Assembly (NCBI GenBank): GCA_030390025.1
Contig: CM059431.1
Location: 97,714,001-97,778,000, forward strand
Origin: Squalus acanthias
Lineage: Eukaryota
Length of the DNA: 64,000 nt
Direction: 5' to 3'
Shown here: piece after piece, positions 3,608 through 53,877 of the stretch
How the letters are laid out: each line of letters begins with the position of its first letter
Numbering within the stretch: position 1 is the first letter of the stretch
Made by a program: the position numbers and the translations under genes
Notes under the pieces: generated by a model
Database searches by the model: none
Told to the model about the DNA's origin: nothing
The model's input: the letters and a program-made list of their open reading frames with translations, nothing else

Positions 3608-6600
3608 CTACTTGTGCATTATTTTTCTTTTACGCGTGCTCCTACGTGGTGCTTCCCCTGTGGCTTCAGCAGATGTGGAGGCCCCTTGCTCACTTTCTTG
3701 CTGCTCCTGCCTCGACACCTTTGGCGGGCGTCCTCTGGGGTTGCGAACCTGTGAGGGCTCGGCAACAGTCTGCTGCTCCTGTGGCTGTGCAGGGGTTGAG
3801 ACGCCGATCTCAGTTGGGTGGGGACTCTGGTGGGGCTCTGACCGAGGGCTCTGCAGTGGCATGGAAGTGTGAGCGCTTGGAGAGGAGCCCCCACTTCCTT
3901 CAAAAAAATAACAAAAAGATTGATTAAGAAAGGGAAGATAGATTATGAAAGTAAATTAGCAAAAAATATAAAAACAGATAGTAAGAGTTTTTATAGTTAT
4001 ATAAAAAGAAAAAGGGTGGCTAAAGTAAATGTTGGTCCCTTAGAGGATGAGACCGGGAAATTAATGGTGGGAAATATGGAGATGGCAAAAACACTGAATG
4101 AATATTTTGTATCAGTCTTTACAGTAGAGGACACTAAGAATATCCCAACACTGGACAAACAGGGGGCTATAGGGGGAGAGGAGCTAAACACGATCAAAAT
4201 CACTAAGGAAGTGGTACTCGGTAAAATAATGGGACTCAAGGCGGATAAATCACCTGGACCTGATGGCTTACATCCTAGAGTCTTGAAGGAAGTGGCGGTA
4301 GGGATTGTAGATGCATTGGTAATAATTTTTCAAAACTCCCTGGATTCCGCTAAGGTCCCGGCAGACTGGAAAACTGCTAATGTAACACCCTTATTTAAAA
4401 AGGGCAGTAGACAGAAGGCTGGTAACTATAGACCGGTTAGCCTAACATCTGTGGTAGGTAAAATTTTGGAGTCCATTATTAAGGAAACAGTAACAGGACA
4501 TTTGGATAATCATAATTTAATAGGACAAAGTCAGCATGGTTTTACGAAGGGGAAGTCATGTTTGACAAATTTGCTGGAGTTCTTTGAGGAAGTAACATAT
4601 AGAGTGGATAAAGGGGAACCAGTGGACGTAGTGTATTTAGACTTCCAAAAGGCATTTGACAAGGTGCCACACAAAAGATTATTGCTTAAGGTAAAAAATC
4701 ACGGAATTGGGGGTAATATTCTGGCATGGATAGAGGATTGGCTATCTAACAGAAAGCAAAGAGTTGGGATAAATGGTTCATTCTCAGACTGGCAATCAGT
4801 AACTAGTGGTGTTCCACAGGGGTCAGTGCTGGGTCCCCAACTCTTCACAATCTATATTAACGATTTGGAGGAAGGGACCAAGTGTAACATATCAAAATTT
4901 GCAGATGATACAAAGATGGGAGGGAAAGTAGTGAGTGAGGAGGACATAAAAAACCTGCAAGGGGACATAGACAGGCTAAGTAAGTGGGCAGAGATTTGGC
5001 AGATGGAATACAACACTGGAAAGTGTGAGGTGATGCACTTTGGCAGGAAAAATCCTAGAGCAATTTATTATCTTAATGGCAAGAAACTGGAGAGTACTGA
5101 AGTGCAAAGGGATCTGGGGGTCCTGGTGCACGAAACTCAAAAGGTTAGTATGCAGGTGCAGCAAGTGATTAAGAAGGCAAATGGGATGTTGGCTTTCATT
5201 GCTAGGGGGATAGAATATAAAAATAGGGAGGTATTGCTTCAGTTGTACAAGGTATTGGTGAGACCGCACCTGGAATACTGCATACAGTTTTGGTGTCCTT
5301 ACTTAAGGAAAGACATCCTTGCTCTCGAGGCAGTGCAAAAAAGGTTCACTCGGTTAATCCCGGGGATGAGGGGGTGGTCATATGAGGAGAGGTTGGGTAG
5401 ATTGGGACTCTACTCATTGGAGTTCAGAAGAATGAGAGGCGATCTTATTGAAACATATAAGATTGTGAAGGGGTTGGATCGGGTGGATGCGGGGAGGATG
5501 TTCCCGATGACGGGTGAGACGAGAACTAGGGGACATAGTCTTAGAATAAGGGGCTGCTCTTTCAAAACTGAGATGAGGAGGAACTACTTCACTCAGAGGG
5601 TGGTAGGTCCATGGAATATGCTGCCACAAAAAGCTGTAGAAGCTACAACATTAATTAAATTTAAAACAGAAATAGACAGTTTCCTAGAAGTAAAGGGCAT
5701 TAAGGGTTACGGGGAGCGGGCAGGAATTTGGACATGAGTCTAGGTTCGGATCGGTCATGGCCCTGTGGGTAGTGGAGCGGGCCCAGGGACTGTGTAGCCT
5801 GATTCTGCTCCTATTTCGTGTGTGCAATTCTGTTAGATGCAGGAGATGGTTCTGTGATAGATAGTAGATTGGCGGTTAGGATCAGATCAGCCATGATCTT
5901 ATTGAATGGCGGAGCAGGCTCGAGGGGCCGATTGGCCTACTCCTGCTCCTATTTCTTATGTTCTTATGTTCTTATGTCTGCCACCAACTTCCCTCTCATG
6001 GGTCAGGTCCACCTCAGCGCTTGCAAGTGGCTTGAGAGCACCTTGCTGCACATCAGGGGGGCCATGGGGACCCGTCTCTGCACTGGCAGTCCTACTCAGA
6101 AGGACTTCCATGAAGCTTTGGTTTCTCTGTTCAATAGCTGACCATCGCTCCTCCAGAGATGTCAGTCTATTCTGAACACTCACCATGTTTTCCTCACTCC
6201 AGCGACTTACTGCCTCCATGGCCGTAGCCAGCCTTTCCACGGAGGTTGCCATCCTTTCCATGGTGCTGCGTTCATGCGCCAACGCCTCCACAAAGGCTCT
6301 GCTCATGTTAGCGAGGGACTCCTCCATTCGCTCCACACTCGCAGCTACCCCAGAGACAAAACCTGCCAGAGACTCCTGCACCTGTTCCTGGAGTTCCAAC
6401 ACCGCTGTTCTATCTGGATGGACCCGGAGGCACAGGGTCGACATGCAGCTGAGCCGCGCTGGCAGAGTCCTGCGCCCTCCGACGAGGACTCTCCACTGCT
6501 GTCCCTGTCTCCACCATCTGCTGATGCTCACTTGTGAGCTGTGATTTACCAGGTGACAACACTACTCTATCTCGCGAGGGTCCCACCGAGGTGTGAGTGT

Positions 6601-25052: not shown

Positions 25053-25747
25053 CTACCTGGTGTAAGCCCTTTCCTTTTTGGATTTCTCCAGCGCTTTGTC
25101 CATGGTTTTCTCATTCTCTCCCCTGCATTTGGGACAGTACCATTTGCCCTTGGGCTTGTGGTTGAGACTCACGCAGGAGAAGTGGAACCACTCGATGGGA
25201 CACTCATCATTGTCGCAGCCAATCATCTCCCCGTAAGAGACCTGGTTGCACAGGCAGTAAGTGGGCTCGTTGGGGTCAATGGGCAGGTCCGCGGGAGACG
25301 CTTCCCTCTCCGCCTTGGCTTTAGATCTCTTCTTCTTCTTGGAGGTCTTGGCCTTCTTCTCCTTCGGCGTTCCCGCGCTGGCCTCCTCGTGGTCGTGGTT
25401 GCTGGACGCGTTCTCCCGGTTCTCGTTGTTCCGCTGCCTCCTGGACCTCTTGGCGCTGGGCTTCTCCACCGGCACCGCGCCCTCGCTCCTGGACCTGTCC
25501 AGCGAGGACTTGTTGTTGGCGTCGTTGCTCTCTGCGCAGTTTTCGAAGAGCTCGACATGGCTGTCCACCTGCCGGCTTCGGTTCTCCACCAGCTCCACCA
25601 TCTGGTTCACGATCTGGATCTTCTCGTCGCCCAGCTCCTGGCTCCGGATCAGAGCCCGTTGGATGAAATGGAGGATCCGCCTGCGCTGAACCACATCCGT
25701 CTCCCTCTTGTGCTTCTCGTAATATTCATCCAGCTCCTTCAGTATGT
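25053..25747 (-). CDS. ING1: Inhibitor of growth protein 1, coding exon 2 (NLS + PHD finger, stop)
   Basis: ..[68 protein letters not shown]..; acceptor CAG at 25750-25748; phase-1 join to exon 1; total CDS 831 nt = 276 aa. Confidence 0.97.
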
Positions 25748-25751
25748 CTGG

Positions 25752-26590
25752 AGAAAGAAAGAAGAAAGACTTGCATTTATACAGCGCATTTATTCACGAC
25801 CTCAGGACAACCCAAAGCGCTTTGCAGCCAATGAAGTACTTTTTGGTATTCAGTCACTGTTTTAATGTAGGAAACACGGCAGCCAATTTGCGCACAGCAA
25901 GATCTCACAAACAGCAATGTGATACTGACCAGATCATCTGTTTACGCGATGTTGGTTGAGGGATAAATATTGGCCCCAGGACACTGGGGATAACTCCCCT
26001 GCTCTTCTTCGAATATTGGCATGGGACCTTTTACGTCCACCCGAGAGGGCAGATGGGGCCTCGGTTTAACGTCTCATCTGAAAGACGGCACTTCCGACAG
26101 TGCAGCGCTGCTTCAGTACTGCCCTCCGACAGTGCAGCACTCCCTCAGTACTGCTCCTCCAATAGTGCAGTGCTCCCTCAGTACTGCCCCTCCGACAGTG
26201 CAGCGCTCCCTCAGTACTGCCCCTCCGACAGTGCAGCGCTCCCTCAGTACTGCCCTTCCGACAGTGCAGCGCTCCCTCAGTATTGCCCCTCCGACAGTGC
26301 AGCGCTCCCTCAGTACTGCCCTTCCGACAGTGCAGCGCTCCCTCAGTACTGCCCCTCCGACAGTGCAGCGCTCCCTCAGTACTGACCCTCCGACAGTGCA
26401 GCGCTCCCTCAGTACTGCCCCTCCGACAGTACAGCACTCCCTCAGTACTGCCCCTCCGACAGTGCAGCACTCCCTCAGTACCGCACTGGGATTGTCAGCC
26501 TAGATTTTTGTGCTCAAGTCTCTGGAGTGGGACTTGAACCCACAACCTTCTGACTCAGAGGTGAGAGTGCTGCCCACTGAGCCACGGCTA
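25752..26590 (-). mobile_element. Full-length tRNA-derived Deu-domain-type SINE (SacSINE1-like) with internal 33-bp minisatellite (about 26095-26480)
   Basis: A box TGGCTCAGTGG, B box GGTTCAAGTCC, GATGAGACGTTAAACCGAGG core, L2-like 3' end and (TCTT)n tail. Confidence 0.85.
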
Positions 26591-26984
26591 AAGTTACAAC
26601 ACCCGGAGTGCAAAACCCACAAAGTGAAGCGGCATCTAGTTCAGCAGATCCTATTGCAGCACAATTTATTTCTCATCGCCTGTATAATAAATAAAAAGAC
26701 CAGTGAGTGAAAAAACCTCAAAGAAATGTAGCGTTTAATGTTGCCACCAACAATGTTCAAATACAGACGCCGAGAACAATGGAAATCATCTCGACTCAAC
26801 AATCAGCACCTTGAAAAATGCCCCAGTAACAACGACAACTTGTATTTGGTCAAAGAGGTAATCCAAGCTGGATTAATGAGGTGAACGGTGATGGTTGAAT
26901 AAAGCCGCACCGTGCACATTTCACCACAAAAGGGCAGCCACGCCAAAACAAAATCTCTAACAGAGGAAGAATTTCCTTTCATAT

Positions 26985-27297: not shown

Positions 27298-29869
27298 TAA
27301 GAACATAAGAAATAGGAGCAGGAGTAGGCCAATCGGCCCCTCGAGCCTGCTCCGCCATTCAATAAGATCATGGCTGATCTGATCCTAACCGCCAATCTAC
27401 TATCACAGAACCATCTCCTGCATCTAACAGAATTGCACACACGAAATAGGAGCAGAATCAGGCTACACGGTCCCTGGGCCCGCTCCACTACCCACAGGGC
27501 CATGACCGATCCGAACCTAGACTCATGTCCAAATTCCTGCCCGCTCCCCGTAACCCTTAATGCCCTTTACTTCTAGGAAACTGTCTATTTCTGTTTTAAA
27601 TTTATTTAATGATGTAGCTTCTACAGCTTTTTGTGGCAGCATATTCCATGGACCTACCACCCTCTGAGTGAAGTAGTTCCTCCTCATCTCAGTTTTGAAA
27701 GAGCAGCCCCTTATTCTAAGACTATGTCCCCTAGTTCTAGTCTCACCCGTCATCGGGAACATCCTCCCCGCATCCACCCGATCCAACCCCTTCACAATCT
27801 TATATGTTTCAATAAGATCGCCTCTCATTCTTCTGAACTCCAATGAGTAGAGTCCCAATCTACCCAACCTCTCCTCATATGACCACCCCCTCATCCCCGG
27901 GATTAACCGAGTGAACCTTTTTTGCACTGCCTCGAGAGCAAGGATGTCTTTCCTTAAGTAAGGACACCAAAACTGTATGCAGTATTCCAGGTGCGGTCTC
28001 ACCAATACCTTGTACAACTGAAGCAATACCTCCCTATTTTTATATTCTATCCCCCTAGCAATGAAAGCCAACATTCCATTTGCCTTCTTAATCACTTGCT
28101 GCACCTGCATACTAACCTTTTGAGTTTCGTGCACCAGGACTCCCAGATCCCTTTGCACTTCAGTACTCTCCAGTTTCTTGCCATTAAGATAATAAATTGC
28201 TCTAGGATTTTTCCTGCCAAAGTGCATCACCTCACACTTTCCAGTGTTGTATTCCATCTGCCAAATCTCTGCCCACTTACTTAGCCTGTCTATGTCCCCT
28301 TGCAGGTTTTTTATGTCCTCCTCACTCACTACTTTCCCTCCCATCTTAGTATCATCTGCAAATTTTGATATGTTACACTTGGTCCCTTCCTCCAAATCGT
28401 TAATATAGATTGTAAAGAGTTGGGGACCCAGCACTGACCCCTGCGGAACACCACTAGTTACTGATTGCCAGTCTGAGAATGAACCATTTATCCCAACTCT
28501 TTGCTTTCTGTTAGATAGCCAATCCTCTATCCATGCCAGAATATTAACCCCAATCCTGTGATTTTTTACCTTAAGCAATAATCTTTTGTGTGGCACCTTG
28601 TCAAATGCCTTTTGGAAGTCTAAATACACTACGTCTACTGGTTCCCCTTTATCCACTCTATATGTTACTTCCTCAAAGAACTCCAGCAAATTTGTCAAAC
28701 ATGACTTCCCCTTCGTAAAACCATGCTGACTTTGTCCTATTAAATTATGATTATCCAAATGTCCTGTTACTGTTTCCTTAATAATGGACTCCAAAATTTT
28801 ACCTACCACAGATGTTAGGCTAACCGGTCTATAGTTACCAGCCTTCTGTCTACTGCCCTTTTTAAATAAGGGTGTTACATTAGCAGTTTTCCAGTCTGCC
28901 GGGACCTTAGCGGAATCCAGGGAGTTTTGAAAAATTATTACCAATGCATCTACAATCCCTACCGCCACTTCCTTCAAGACTCTAGGATGTAAGCCATCAG
29001 GTCCAGGTGATTTATCCGCCTTGAGTCCCATTATTTTACCGAGTACCACTTCCTTAGTGATTTTGATCGTGTTTAGCTCCTCTCCCCCTATAGCCCCCTG
29101 TTTGTCCAGTGTTGGGATATTCTTAGTGTCCTCTACTGTAAAGACTGATACAAAATATTCATTCAGTGTTTTTGCCATCTCCATATTTCCCACCATTAAT
29201 TTCCCGGTCTCATCCTCTAAGGGACCAACATTTACTTTAGCCACCCTTTTTCTTTTTATATAACTATAAAAACTCTTACTATCTGTTTTTATATTTTTTG
29301 CTAATTTACTTTCATAATCTATCTTCCCTTTCTTAATCAATCTTTTTGTTATTTTTTGCTGTCTTTTAAAGTTTTCCCAATCCTCTATCCTCCCACTAGA
29401 TTTGGCTACCTTATAGGCCCTTGTTTTTAGTCGAATACTATCCTTAATTTCTTTACTTAGCCACGGATGACTGTCCTTTCTTTTACACCCTTTTCTTTTC
29501 AGTGGAATATATATTTTTTGGAAGTTGTAAAATAACTCCTTGAATGTACACCACTGATCATGTGTCGCCTTACCCTTTAATCTATTTTCCCAATCCACTC
29601 TACTCAATTCCGCTCGCATACCTTCATAGTCTCCTTTATTCAAGCTTAGCACGCTTGTTTGAGATCCAACCTTCTCACCCTCTAATTGAATATGGAATTC
29701 AACCATGTTATGGTCACTCATTCCAAGGGGATCCTTTACTAGGACATTTTTAATTAATCCTGTCTCGTTACACAGGACCAGATCTAAGGTTGCTTGCCCC
29801 CTGGTCGGTTCAGTTACATACTGCTCAAGAAACCCATCCCTAATACACTCAATGAACTCATCCTCAAGG
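27298..29869 (-). mobile_element. CR1 family B copy in the ING1 intron, uninterrupted ORF2 remnant
   Basis: ORF 27523-29922 (799 aa), nearly identical to 3869-5737 over the shared part. Confidence 0.95.
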
Positions 29870-30164
29870 TTCAAATTAAGAAACATAAACATTAAATCTA
29901 AAAGCTGAGAATACAAAAGCATAAACTTTTATGATGATTTTGCTCATAAATACTTAATGGAAAATGTTTTCAAAAGTGAGAACCTGTAATCCTGTTTATT
30001 ATCTATCGTCAGTTCCAAATCGCACCATCAGTAAGTTCTGATTCAGACTCCAGTGCGAGACGTGTGCTTTATTAGCAACTATGACCAATTATTAATCCCA
30101 ATGCTCTGAAACTCCCCCCTCAAGCAGGCGAGGGTTTTGATGCTTCCTCTCTGTTTCACAGATT

Positions 30165-32060: not shown

Positions 32061-32196
32061 CTTGGTATTTTGCATCGATTTCCCTCATCAGAGACACGTT
32101 CCTCTGGAGATCAAAAGGCAGAGACTCGATGGAATCCAAATAGTCCTCCACATAGCTCACAACCTGCGTCTGCTCCCCGTTCGCAGGACTCAGCAT
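32061..32196 (-). CDS. ING1: Inhibitor of growth protein 1, coding exon 1 (p33ING1b-type N-terminus)
   Basis: MLSPANGEQTQVVSYVEDYLDSIESLPFDLQRNVSLMREIDAKYQ; donor AAG|GTAAGG at 32061/32060. Confidence 0.97.
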
Positions 32197-32549: not shown

Positions 32550-33658
32550 GGCCGCACCGCGCCTGCGCGCCCGCCGCCCAGCCAGCCCCGCCCCGCTCAT
32601 TACCATACCATTGTGACGTCGCCGCCCCGCTTTCTTCTATTTCCAGCCGATCTCTTTTTTTTCTTCTTTCCACGCCCCCCACCTCCGGATCTTTCAGCCG
32701 CACTTTTCCCTTAAAAAGTAGATTCGGCTGCGCTTTGCCCGACAAAAAAAAATTCAAACCCCCTTCAGCTGTTATTTAGTGATTGACGTGGCATTTCGCC
32801 CAATCACATCGCGCCTCAGGGAAAGTTCCGAGCAATCAGCGCTGCCGGGAGGCGGGATCTCCTCGTTCAATTTTTATTTAGTGATTGACGTGGGGTTTGG
32901 TCCAATCACACCTCGCCTCCGGGAAGTTTGGGACCAATCGGCGGTGCCCGGGAGGCAGGACCTCGCCCTCCCATCCAACGGCGGGTTGTCAACAGCCCAA
33001 CCGCACGGGACTGCGCAGGCGCGGCCGCGGGGCCCGCTGGGAGTTGGAGTCCGCTGCCTGGCCGGCGCCCCTTGACAAGCCGGAGCGGAAAGACTACACC
33101 TTCCAGCAGGCAGCGCGCCGGCCCGGTTTGAAATTAGCGGGCGGGCGGTTCAAAGGTCTGCGCTGGCAGCCACCTCCAGCTCAGAGACCGGGGTGGGGGA
33201 GGGGATGCAGCGTTGCTATGGAGCCGCCCGTTGCTAGGCTGTTAAAAGAATTCCCAGGCCACAGCCGTCCGATTTATTTTGTACCGGGGGGGGGCGTCGG
33301 TCACCCCTCGAGCTTCGCCATCTCCACTCCCGACCCCGTGCCCTCTCCTGTTCTAGGGGTAGAGGTGGCAGCAACTCCCCCCCCTGGGGCCCCGGTGATG
33401 CGGTAAGCCGTGATGGACGGCGGCTGGGATGGAGGGCGGGGCTAGTGTGGGGTAGGGCGGGGCTAGTGGGGGCGGAGCCGGGGCTGGTGGGGGCGGAGCC
33501 AGCGTGTGGGGGAGCTCGGATGGATGCAGGGGCGGAGCTAGGGCAAGGGGCGGGGCCAGGTCGGTCCTCTAGCCCCGCCTCTTGCGGCGCCGCCATTTCG
33601 GAGCGCGGCCTAGTCCATAGGCTGCCAGCACGAGTGTCGCTTGGCCCCGGCTCCCAGG
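32550..33658. promoter_or_regulatory. Bidirectional ING1/CARS2 CpG-island promoter
   Basis: CpG-rich; TGACGTC near 32614, CCAAT boxes, GGGCGG array 33430-33560, CGCCATTT (YY1-like) near 33590, X-box-like GTTGCTATGG 33212. Confidence 0.8.
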
Positions 33659-33885
33659 ATGAGGACGCTGCTGGCCGGCTGGAGCTTGGCCGCATGGCGT
33701 CAGCTGAGCGGGGCGACGGTCCGCGGCTGCGCCTCGGGCTCGGCGCTGCCGGGCGGCTGTGGTGCGAAGGAGCAGCGGCGCGGCTGGCAGCAACCGAGGG
33801 GGCACCCCGCCGGCCTGCGGGTCTACAACAGCCTGACGCGGAGCAAAGAGCCGCTAGTGCTCGCCGAGCCGGCCACTGCCTCCTG
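33659..33885 (+). CDS. CARS2: Mitochondrial cysteinyl-tRNA synthetase, coding exon 1 (targeting peptide + start of catalytic domain)
   Basis: MRTLLAGWSLAAWRQ..GWQQPRG..GLRVYNSLTRSKEPLVLAEPATASW; Arg-rich, acid-poor N-terminus; head-to-head with ING1 as in human; donor TG|GTACAG. Confidence 0.9.
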
Positions 33886-33937: not shown

Positions 33938-34838
33938 GGCCTGGCTCAATGGACAACACCCTCGCCTCTGGGGCAGAGGGTCGTGGGTTCAAGTCCCACT
34001 CCAGAGACTTGAGCACAAAATCCAGGCTGACACTCCCAGTGCGGCGCTCCCTCAGTACTGCCCTTCCGACAGTGCTGCGCACCCTCAGTACTGCCCCTCC
34101 GACAGTGCGGCACTCCCTCAGCGCTGCCCCTCCGACAGTGCGGCCCTCCAACAGTGCGGCACTCCCTCAGTGCTGCCCCTCCGACAGTGCGGCGCTCCCT
34201 CAGTACTGCCCCTCCGACAGTGCGGCACTCCCTCAGTACTGCCCCTCCGACAGTGCGGCACTCCCTCAGCACTGCCCCTCCGACAGTGCGGCACTCCCTC
34301 AGCGCTGCCCCTCCGACAGTGCGGCACTCCCTCTACTGCCCCTCCGACAGTGCGGCACTCCCTCAGTACTGCCCCTCCGACAGTGCGGCACTCCCTCAGT
34401 ACTGCCCCTCCGACAGTGCGGCACTCCCTCAGTACTGCCCCTCCGACAGTGCGGCACTCCCTCAGTACTGCCCCTCCGACAGTGCGGCACTCCCTCAGCG
34501 CTTCCCCTCCGACAGTGCGGCGCTCCCTCAGCGCTGCCCCTCCGACAGTGCAGCACTCCCTCAGTACTGCCCCTCCGACAGTGCGGCGCTCCCTCAGTAC
34601 TGCCCCTCCGACAGTGCGGCGCTCCCTCAGTACTGCCCCTCCGACAGTGCGGCGCTCCCTCAGTACTGCCCCTCCGACAGTGCAGCGCTCCCTCAGTACT
34701 GCCCCTCCGACAGTGCGGCGCTCCCTCAGCACTGCACCCGGAATGTCAGCCTGGATTGTGGGCTCGAGTGTCTGGAGTGGGTATTGAATCCACAACCTTC
34801 TGACTCAGTCAAGAAGGCTACCCACTGAGCCACGGCTG
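33938..34838. repeat. 33-bp minisatellite (about 34037-34735) bracketed by two inverted SINE tRNA heads
   Basis: Plus head 33938-34040 and minus head 34735-34838; unit CCCTCCGACAGTGCGGCACTCCCTCAGTACTGC. Confidence 0.85.
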
Positions 34839-36493: not shown

Positions 36494-38009
36494 GGAGATA
36501 CAGAATCGTCAAAGCATATATAGATAGAGAACAAAGCATGTGTAACTTACAATTGCAGACAACTGAATTCAATCATCCTGACTGTTTATCTGCCGAGGTG
36601 TGATAAAGTTAATCAGGTCAGCCAGGAATGTACCACATCAAAGACATAGCAAGATACAACTGAGACAATGAGGTGGAATCGCATGGGGTCGAACGTGTCA
36701 AAAGCTGCCGTCTGTATGTAAAACGATTAACTTTAAAATTTTTACTTTTTTACTGGGAATCACATCTGTGAACAAGCCAACGACGACTCGAGTCCGGATC
36801 ACGTCATGTATCGTGACATAAACCCAAGATCCCGATTGAGACCGTCTTCATGAGTGCGGAACTTGGCTATCAGTTTCTGCTCGATGATTTTGCGTTGTCG
36901 TGTTTTCCTAAGGTCGCCTTGGAGAACGCTTACCCGCAGATCCGAGGCTGAATGTCCTTGACTGCTGAAGTGTTCCCCGACTGGGAGGTAACAATCCTGC
37001 CTGGCGATTGTTGCGCGGTGCTCGTTCATACGTTGTCTCAGTGTCTGCATGGTCTCGCCGATGTACCATGCCGCGGTGCATTCTTTCCTGCAACGTATGA
37101 GGTAGACAACGTTGGCCGAGTCACATGAGTATGTACCATGTACCTGGTAGGTAGTGTCCTCACGTGTGATGATGGTATCTGTGTTGATGATCTGGCATGT
37201 CTTGCAGAGTTTGCCATGGCAGGGTTGTGTGGTGTCGTGGTCGCTGTTATCCTAAAAGCTGGGTAATTTGCTGCGAACGATGGTACTTCTGAGGTTAGGC
37301 GGCTGTTTGAAGGCAAGTAGTGGAGGCGTGGGGATGGCCTTAGCGAGGTGTTTGTCGTCATCATGTCATCATACTCATGTGACTCGGCCAACGTTGTCTA
37401 CCTCATACGTTGCAGGAAAGAATGCACCGCGGCATGGTACATCGGCGAGACCATGCAGACACTGAGACAACGTATGAACGAGCACCGCGCAACAATCGCC
37501 AGGCAGGATTGTTACCTCCCAGTCGGGGAACACTTCAGCAGTCAAGGACATTCAGCCTCGGATCTGCGGGTAAGCGTTCTCCAAGGCGACCTTAGGAAAA
37601 CACGACAACGCAAAATCATCGAGCAGAAACTGATAGCCAAGTTCCGCACTCATGAAGACGGTTTCAATCGGGATCTTGGGTTTATGTCACGATACATGAC
37701 GTGATCCGGACTCGAGTCGTCGTTGGCTTGTTCACAGATGTGATTCCCAGTAAAAAAGTAAAAATTTTAAAGTTAATCGTTTTACATACAGACGGCAGCT
37801 TTTGACACGTTCGACCCCATGCGATTCCACCTCATTGTCTCAGTTGTATCTTGCTATGTCTTTGATGTGGTACATTCCTGGCTGACCTGACTGTTTATCT
37901 GCCGAGGTGTGATAAAGTTAGTCAGGATGATTGAATTCAGTTGTCTGCAATTGTAAGTTACACATGCTTTGTTCTCTATCTATATATGCTTTGACGATTC
38001 TGTATCTCC

Positions 38010-52142: not shown

Positions 52143-52998
52143 CAGTGCAGTGCTGAGGGAGCGCTGCACTGTCGGAGGGGCAGTACTGAGGGAGCGCTGC
52201 ACTGTCGGAGGGGCAGTACTGAGGCAGCGCCGCACTGTCGGAGGGGCAGTACTGAGGGAGCGCTGCACTGGCGGAGGGGCAGTACTGAGGGAGTGCTGCA
52301 CTGTCGGAGGGTCAGTACTGAGGGAGCGCTGCACTGTCGGAGGGGCAGTACTGAGGGAGCGCTGCACTGTCGGAGGGGCAGTACTGAGGGAGCGCCGCAC
52401 TGTCGGAGGGGCAGTACTGAGGGAGCGCTGCACTGTCGGAGGGGCAGTACTGAGGGAGCGCCGCACTGTCGGAGGGGCAGTACTGAGGGAGCGCCGCACT
52501 GTCGGAGGGGCAGTACTGAGGGAGCGCCGCACTGTCGGAGGGGCAGTACTGAGGGAGCGCTGCACTGTTGGAGGGGCAGTACTGAGGGAGCGCCGCACTG
52601 TCGGAGGGGCAGTACTGAGGGAGCGCCGCACTGTCGGAGGGGCAGTACTGAGGGAGTGCTGCACTGTTGGAGGTCTTTTGGATGAGACGTTAAAGCGAGA
52701 CCCCATCTACCTTCTCAGGTGGACGTAAAAGATCCCATGGCACTATTCTAAGAAGAGCGTAGGAGTTCTCCCCGGTTGGTGTGCTGGCCAATATTTAGCC
52801 ATCAACCAACATTACTGAAGAAAACAGATTATCTGGTCATTATCACATTGCTGTTTGTGGGAGCTTGCTGTGTGCAAATTGGCTGCTGCATTTCCTACAT
52901 TACAACAGTGACTCCACTTAAAGTACTTCACTGGCTGTAAAGCACTTTGGGAAGTCCTGAGGCCGTGAAAGGCGCTGTAGAAATGCAAGTCTTTTTTC
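52143..52998 (+). mobile_element. Headless Deu-type SINE with 33-bp minisatellite (about 52146-52673)
   Basis: Array, then GATGAGACGTTAAA core and L2-like tail. Confidence 0.85.
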
Positions 52999-53877
52999 TA
53001 ATGTTCCTAACATGAGATGTAGTGAGTGTCTTATGTGAAATCCACAAAGGAAGTTGGCATGTTTAGGGTTAATTGGTGGAGCTCGGCTGTTCAATTTAGA
53101 GTGGCAGAGAGTAAGAGCGACCAGTTTCCAATCATTTGGGACACGCTCTGGTGACAAATATTGTTGGGCTGTTGAGGAATAGGTGCTAGAAAAGGCCATA
53201 CCAAAGTGAAATAAACTTTTCCCTCCAACTAAAAACGCCGTTAAAAGTTGAAATAAAGTTGTCTGCAGCGATGCCAGGAGCACACGGCCGGAAACTGGAA
53301 GCCAAAAGAAAGTCTGGAACATGAAACGGCCAGAGAGAGCATTCTAGTCAGAGCAGGAGACGAAAGAAAGACTTTCTATAGCGCTTTACAGCCAGTTAAG
53401 TACTTTTGAAGTAGTCACTGCTGTAATGTACTTTTTTTCTGCACTGTTTAGAAGTCCTTAAGCTGCAATCTGAAAAGGAGCAGGGTAAAGTGACAGGAGC
53501 CAAGGGACCGAGGCAAAGTAAAGAAGGTGCATTCGAATGGGCCAAGTGGGTGGCGGCATCTAATAACCAGATGAGTGAGGCTGCTGTGATCTGGTACAAC
53601 ACGTTTGGTACTTCCGACCTGATGCATAAATGTTAAGGGGTGTACGTAGAAGGATATTTGAATTGCGAACAGGCCAAAACAAATGGGTGCGAAGAGCATT
53701 GGCAGAAAACTGGTACAGTCACTCTGTGAAAGCACTTTCTGCATTCTCTCGTGTAGATTCTGATTACAACCCAGTAGAACATGCAATTCCTGACTCTGCC
53801 GATCTCACATTAAAAGCTAATAGGTGTAATGACCACCTTGAACAAGATAAAGCCCAGCCATCACCATGCTCCCTACT

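Follow-up and report, generated by a model that had tools for sequence, protein, structure and literature searches.

In the window analysed here (the whole stretch of 64,000 nucleotides of Squalus acanthias DNA), a SINE in intron 1 of ING1 ends next to the acceptor of the last coding exon. Which parts of this 3' splice site were contributed by the element, and which were already present in the host when it inserted?

The last exon of ING1 and its acceptor

The coding parts of the gene and the acceptor were placed as follows (coordinates are positions in the window; negative numbers count nucleotides upstream of exon 2).

32061 to 32196, minus strand: coding part of ING1 exon 1, 45 codons plus G
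25748 to 25750, minus strand: CAG acceptor of ING1 intron 1 (by protein homology)
25053 to 25747, minus strand: last coding exon (exon 2), with the C-terminal part of the ING domain and the PHD finger; stop at 25053

According to Pfam the ING domain spans the two exons and the PHD finger lies in exon 2; the best PDB match was the PHD finger of ING1 (2QIC), and over the first 102 codons of exon 2 shark proteins named ING1 showed 93-95% identity. All of this agrees with the first-pass annotation, which had named the gene ING1 and the exon its PHD-finger exon. Among the matches listed, the nearest ING1 proteins are from sharks, and the window itself is repeat-rich and shark-like.

Intron 1 is 6313 nt long, with a GT donor at 32060-32059 and the acceptor AG at 25749-25748, so that exon 2 starts at 25747 (minus strand). 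Splicing of exon 1 to 25747 gives the junction KYQ-D-ILKE and an ING1 protein of 276 aa. Each of the 22 canonical ING1 proteins fetched from chondrichthyans shows KYQ and D or E, then I, V or L and LKE at this junction, and 13 of them are exactly 276 aa long. Homology thus gives good support to the AG at 25749-25748 as the acceptor of the last exon. Among the acceptors considered, only 25748 yields both the conserved junction and 276 aa; the AG that ends the SINE terminal motif (at -24/-23) would, if used, add 22 nt and shift the frame.

An old SINE in sense orientation

The SINE (26589 to about 25760, minus strand) is full-length, about 840 bp, and lies in sense to ING1. The flank, the parts of the element and the junction with the exon, read toward exon 2, are:

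26590 to 26635, minus strand: flank on the 5' side of the SINE, putatively the ancestral intron end, T-rich, 46 nt without AG
26482 to 26589, minus strand: tRNA-like head, with an A-box-like motif at 26584-26574 and a B-box-like motif at 26540-26530
26093 to 26481, minus strand: 33-bp tandem array inside the SINE, 11.8 units, 93% matches
25781 to 26092, minus strand: SINE body, BLAST identity 82-84% with the copies at 56516-56188 and 52673-52999
26041 to 26042, minus strand: internal acceptor-like AG of the SINE family, GG in the ING1 copy
25789 to 25794, minus strand: AATAAA, private to the ING1 copy, removing a shared AG, within an 8-nt direct repeat
25770 to 25780, minus strand: SINE terminal motif, ending in AG at -24/-23
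25777 to 25779, minus strand: candidate branch point (putative function), T at -32 and A at -30 (25777)
25750 to 25769, minus strand: 20-nt T/C run, SINE tail plus host tract, with CTTT at 25768-25765, 25761-25758 and 25757-25754

The head starts at 26589, the point where a second head in the window also begins and where the flanks diverge; an earlier span reaching to 26600 takes in 11 nt of flank. The box-like motifs were judged by eye in all three heads against what we take to be the A-box and B-box consensus; for the SINE head, ARAGORN found no tRNA, Rfam gave no tRNA match and no cloverleaf was detected (z -0.64). What generally marks a SINE was found here: non-coding copies that are dispersed (the 64-kb window has two more heads and three more copies that retain the 3' end), share a 3' end and carry a simple-repeat tail. 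Over its last ~60 nt the SINE can be aligned to two LINE-like 3' ends of the window, at a mean column identity of 65%; one of these ends follows a weak RT match (E 0.006, below the cut-off). We take these LINE-like ends to belong to the L2 clade, and the SINE body presumably resembles the Deu domain. The AATAAA (25794-25789, minus strand), 42-47 nt before the acceptor, is a possible intronic polyadenylation signal.

SacSINE1 is described as having a tRNA head, a Deu domain and an L2-type tail (PMC5499810). The ING1 element would be like SacSINE1/DeuSINE in its tRNA-like head, its body and a 3' end that may be shared with an L2-type LINE, and the family is abundant in sharks (PMC5499810 and PMC3747384, in the passages cited); it may fit SacSINE1 as the paper describes it, the comparison being one of descriptions rather than of an aligned consensus. 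It differs in its 11.8-unit 33-bp array and its length of about 840 bp, since the SacSINE1 copies reported reach at most 463 bp in the whale shark and 425 bp in the skate, and the word "tandem" is absent from the main text of that paper (PMC5499810).

Private differences are about equally frequent in the ING1 copy (21 of 266 columns) and in its two siblings (19 of 264 and 22 of 267), and the ING1 copy is for this reason old, neither a recent insertion nor a fresh allele. A SINE of this family may also lie in the gene in other chondrichthyans. The N-termini of two catshark ING1 models, P0003 (isoform X3) and P0130 (X1), translate the SINE array and, by eye, the body; in P0003 exon 1 is joined to a SINE-derived exon and then to exon 2. 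This is a lead to a sense copy in ING1 intron 1 of another shark, in which the internal AG homologous to 26042-26041, GG in the copy studied here, appears to be used. The open reading frame P0149, identical to skate ING1 in 230 of 230 exon 2 residues, has MQV as its start, seven residues ahead of the junction, which is what an in-frame reading of the SINE end motif would give (QV after the start by chance, about 0.002 with uniform codons). This is a lead that the SINE end may be common to skates, an alternative exon also being possible; the same motif of P0149 matches another intronic repeat, at 27132-27118. A screen for intron read-through among the alternative N-termini of ING1 records from chondrichthyans, 10 in number, found QV within the last 15 residues in 2 of them, as against none of 64 other records (Fisher P 0.017, post hoc); this is a lead only, exon-end and acceptor contexts being alike in protein.

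Among 62 proteins retrieved as possible short fragments of ING1, none exceeded 75% identity; the ING1 exon-start pattern had 0 matches in metagenomes, and SINE patterns had 0 matches in viral contigs and 0 in prokaryote genomes. Ten metagenome matches to a SINE 19-mer were rejected as chance, none extending past 20 nt. A GC-rich stretch of intron 1 (31260-31050) matches weakly the alternative N-termini of the ING1 isoforms P0127 and P0131 from two other sharks, which suggests a conserved internal promoter or first exon.

The pyrimidine tract, the point of insertion and the branch point

On the minus strand the SINE end motif (terminal AAG) is followed by 20 pure pyrimidines (25769-25750), the AG and exon 2. 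Pyrimidines occupy 17 of the 17 positions from -20 to -4, as at no other of 4257 YAG sites on both strands of the window. A T/C tail is a trait of the SINE family, as it follows the 3' end in all three other copies that have one (17, 10 and 10 nt). In the copy at 52 kb the run of 10 nt is followed by the resumed TGTTCC repeat, so that in this copy no fewer than 9-10 nt come from the element. Over its first 8 nt the ING1 run is identical to two of the three other copies, and beyond them it diverges.

The flank before the SINE reads ...TAACTTT, as had been written earlier, and its end (CTTT, 26593-26590) is a candidate 4-nt target-site duplication, a size that suits the 3-5 bp reported for L2-clade elements, in which short duplications predominate (PMC4245944, in the passages cited). 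The register is ambiguous because CTTT occurs three times in the run: the host would keep the last 10, 14 or 21 nt, and the SINE share of the tract would be 12, 8 or 1 nt, in the middle register exactly the 8 nt that match two siblings. The share of the tract that came from the SINE cannot be told from this one genome; we put the 10- and 14-nt host registers together at slightly better than even odds and consider those with 20-21 host nt possible, at appreciably lower odds.

The first-pass annotation had seen a (TCTT)n tail abutting the acceptor and supplying its tract. The T/C run at the end of the SINE does adjoin the acceptor (25769-25750 joins the CAG at 25750-25748), the family has a T/C tail, and the SINE forms part of the 3' splice site; as to the whole 20-nt run being SINE, the sequence is silent, and the 10 nt nearest the AG may be host. 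The empty site proposed at the time (6 host nt, no duplication) is the same sequence as 10 host nt with duplication of CTTT, and its last 10 nt are identical to the present ones; two other registers fit equally. Since they are unchanged in the 10-nt register, the tail would there have lengthened the tract (from 11 to 17 of 17 pyrimidines), not created it. The value of 11 of 17 is reached by 926 of the 4257 YAG sites.

The flank itself resembles an old intron end, as the plausible ancestral acceptor of that annotation implies. In addition to the 46 nt free of AG, its last 44 nt contain 18 T and 4 A (an AG-free stretch of at least 44 nt was met at 6.5% of 9115 sampled positions), and it carries two branch-like motifs, a yTNAy with its adenine at 26625 and the TAAC at 26596-26593 (A at 26594). 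In the 10- and 14-nt registers, at -11 or -15, the TAAC would be too near the exon or marginally placed, while -42 or -46 would put the other motif outside the usual range. With 21 host nt the TAAC falls at -22, and the empty site is that of a textbook acceptor.

The last register leads to a tentative alternative to the SINE supplying much of the tract: the tract would be essentially host, the element having landed between the old TAAC branch point (26596-26593) and the CT tract and added a branch point and 1-2 nt, with its T/C tail pairing with the T/C target during priming. Such tail-target pairing can occur in L2/CR1 priming. With 20-21 host nt and a duplication of 3-4 nt, the empty site would have TAAC at -22, 17 of 17 pyrimidines and a long AG-free zone. 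The TAAC heptamer matches the U2-pairing consensus in 5 of 7 positions, above any adenine in the present -15 to -61 region (at best 4 of 7), and a TRAC is found this near, in the 10 nt preceding a point chosen at random, for 598 of 12780 positions (4.7%). Against this, the siblings carry T/C tails of 10-17 nt at sites that are not acceptors, which makes a tail of 1-2 nt atypical, and the host tract would have to equal the tail over 8 nt. Passages on L2 priming and junctions in PMC4245944 and other papers concern 5' junctions and do not show tail-target pairing, and a literature search on L2 3' microhomology returned no paper.

At the other extreme, truncation of the target site could have deleted the old tract, the tail supplying all but the last 3-5 nt and the flank being ordinary intron. 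Truncations are a recognised outcome of LINE insertion (PMC4245944, in part), one other copy has a T/C run of 17 nt, and CTTT could arise by chance in a T/C run; we nevertheless regard this history as improbable, given a flank that is AG-free, poor in A and provided with branch-like motifs, and the predominance of short duplications noted above.

The branch point can be placed with more firmness than the origin of the tract. The intron from -23 to -842 is entirely SINE, and between -18 and -39 it offers only one TNA, with the adenine at 25777, whose heptamer at -30 is weak, matching the U2-pairing consensus in only 3 of 7 positions. Some 90% of branch points are TNA, and most are found 18-37 nt upstream of the exon (PMC8531310); this and the following distance rules are mammalian and are applied here to a shark locus. 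By position and distance the branch point of the last exon should be SINE-derived and lies almost certainly inside the SINE, as the first-pass annotation had proposed. AGs less than 12-15 nt after a branch point can be bypassed (PMC1431707), and the risk zone for AGs begins more than 6 nt after it (PMC9284458); the AG at -24/-23, 6-7 nt past the adenine at 25777, is in the bypassable range and at the edge of the risk zone. Distant branch points require a long AG-free zone (PMC1431707), and the SINE keeps many AGs between the flank and exon 2, with no such zone. These AGs count against a further explanation: that in most transcripts or individuals another acceptor is used, that the branch point lies upstream of the SINE, or that the SINE is a rare allele or an assembly feature. 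The catshark models, in which a SINE exon is spliced into exon 2, indicate that such SINEs can perturb ING1 splicing, but only 25748 gives the conserved junction and 276 aa, and the copy, with about as many private differences as its siblings, is old; we give this explanation very little credence.

Proposed history and comparison with known splice signals

We favour, at a probability of about 0.55, insertion of a sense SINE into an existing acceptor, the host AG and the nearest 10-14 nt being kept and the branch point being taken from the SINE. On this view a SINE mobilised by L2 would have entered the 3' splice site of intron 1 of ING1 in sense, some 10-14 nt before the exon, and CTTT would have been duplicated. 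The host would have retained the AG and the adjoining 10-14 nt of the tract, while the old upstream signals (26625 and 26594) were displaced by about 840 nt. The T/C tail (8-12 nt) would have replaced like with like, lengthening the tract to 20 nt, and a new branch point would have arisen within the SINE, most likely the A at -30 (25777), with the SINE's own AG at -24/-23, 6-7 nt after it, being skipped. The insertion may have been tolerated because the tail and the SINE branch point took over.

Some changes at the 3' end of the SINE may be related to this role. The T of the candidate TNA (-32, 25779) is G in all three other copies and removes an AG; T is found in this column in the LINE-like end at 27 kb too, so that it may be a variant that was inherited. 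Within the final 50 columns three of the four AGs common to the two full siblings are gone from the ING1 copy, and further up the body three of 12 (P about 0.011 for the contrast; permutation, post hoc, two reference copies); in the matching test the siblings lost 1 of 2 and 0 of 1. A single event may account for two of the AG-removing changes, which make up an 8-nt direct repeat, and the ING1 copy has gained four AGs elsewhere in the body. Together these changes are a hint of adaptation of the SINE 3' end to splicing. A more far-reaching idea, which we hold to be speculative and rather unlikely, is that pairing between tail and target guides T/C-tailed SINEs of sharks to pyrimidine tracts, where they restore the acceptors that they break up, the ING1 copy, old and perhaps shared with skates, having been tuned (AGs purged, TNA gained) into an obligatory branch point. 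If so, shark genomes as a whole should show an excess of such insertions, in sense, directly at constitutive acceptors, opposite to the depletion seen in mammals.

Splice signals originating in transposable elements (TEs) are known. In canine merle, a SINEC_Cf element likewise lies at the last intron-exon boundary (PMEL intron 10/exon 11) with a pyrimidine tail on the acceptor, and short tails permit use of the original acceptor and normal splicing; that element is antisense (oligo-dT from poly-A), polymorphic and linked to an alternative acceptor and a phenotype, whereas the ING1 SINE is sense, has its own T/C tail and is old (PMC6091007, in the passages cited). Antisense Alus, in exonisation and pseudoexons, likewise provide a branch point and a pyrimidine tract from a retroelement, and sense Alus lack such tract support; the Alu signals serve new or cryptic exons built from TE sequence, whereas the ING1 SINE serves an ancient conserved coding exon (PMC7951965, in part). 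In mammals, TE insertions are seldom found less than 20 bp from an acceptor, where they are likely to be harmful, with 168 polymorphic Alus reported within 100 bp of exons (PMC3088655 and PMC6326789, in the passages cited). These zones of under-representation were described for mammalian elements with poly-A tails, in contrast to the T/C-tailed shark SINE; a count near exons for T/C-tailed shark SINEs was not found in the literature searched, and the open-access literature, searched by title, held nothing on the ING1 locus or on a sense SINE tail at a constitutive acceptor.

The sense orientation and the ancient exon are unusual, and the case as a whole modestly so; it is one locus, with a plausible mechanism. 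If a sense SINE does carry the branch point of an ancient exon, this would be a second route by which a host becomes dependent on an element, with no new exon made. A single locus is a curiosity; it would matter if the pattern were common genome-wide in sharks or if the compensatory changes held.

Other repeats were noted in the window. A LINE fragment in ING1 intron 1 (27400-29928, sense) has an unbroken RT frame of 801 aa and shares 99% identity over 1958 nt with a copy in inverted orientation at 3903-5860, 21.5 kb away; the pair may be either young copies or the result of gene conversion. Two SINE heads, at 33942-34043 (plus strand) and 34837-34734 (minus strand), face each other around ~21 units of the 33-bp array, with no body, just after the probable first exon of a divergent gene near 33650-33885. 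This neighbour is presumably CARS2, a name for which Pfam and PDB gave no match. A perfect inverted repeat of 521 nt (36613-37133 and 37370-37890, arms 236 nt apart) contains a short frame in each arm, which we take to resemble a Penelope-type endonuclease.
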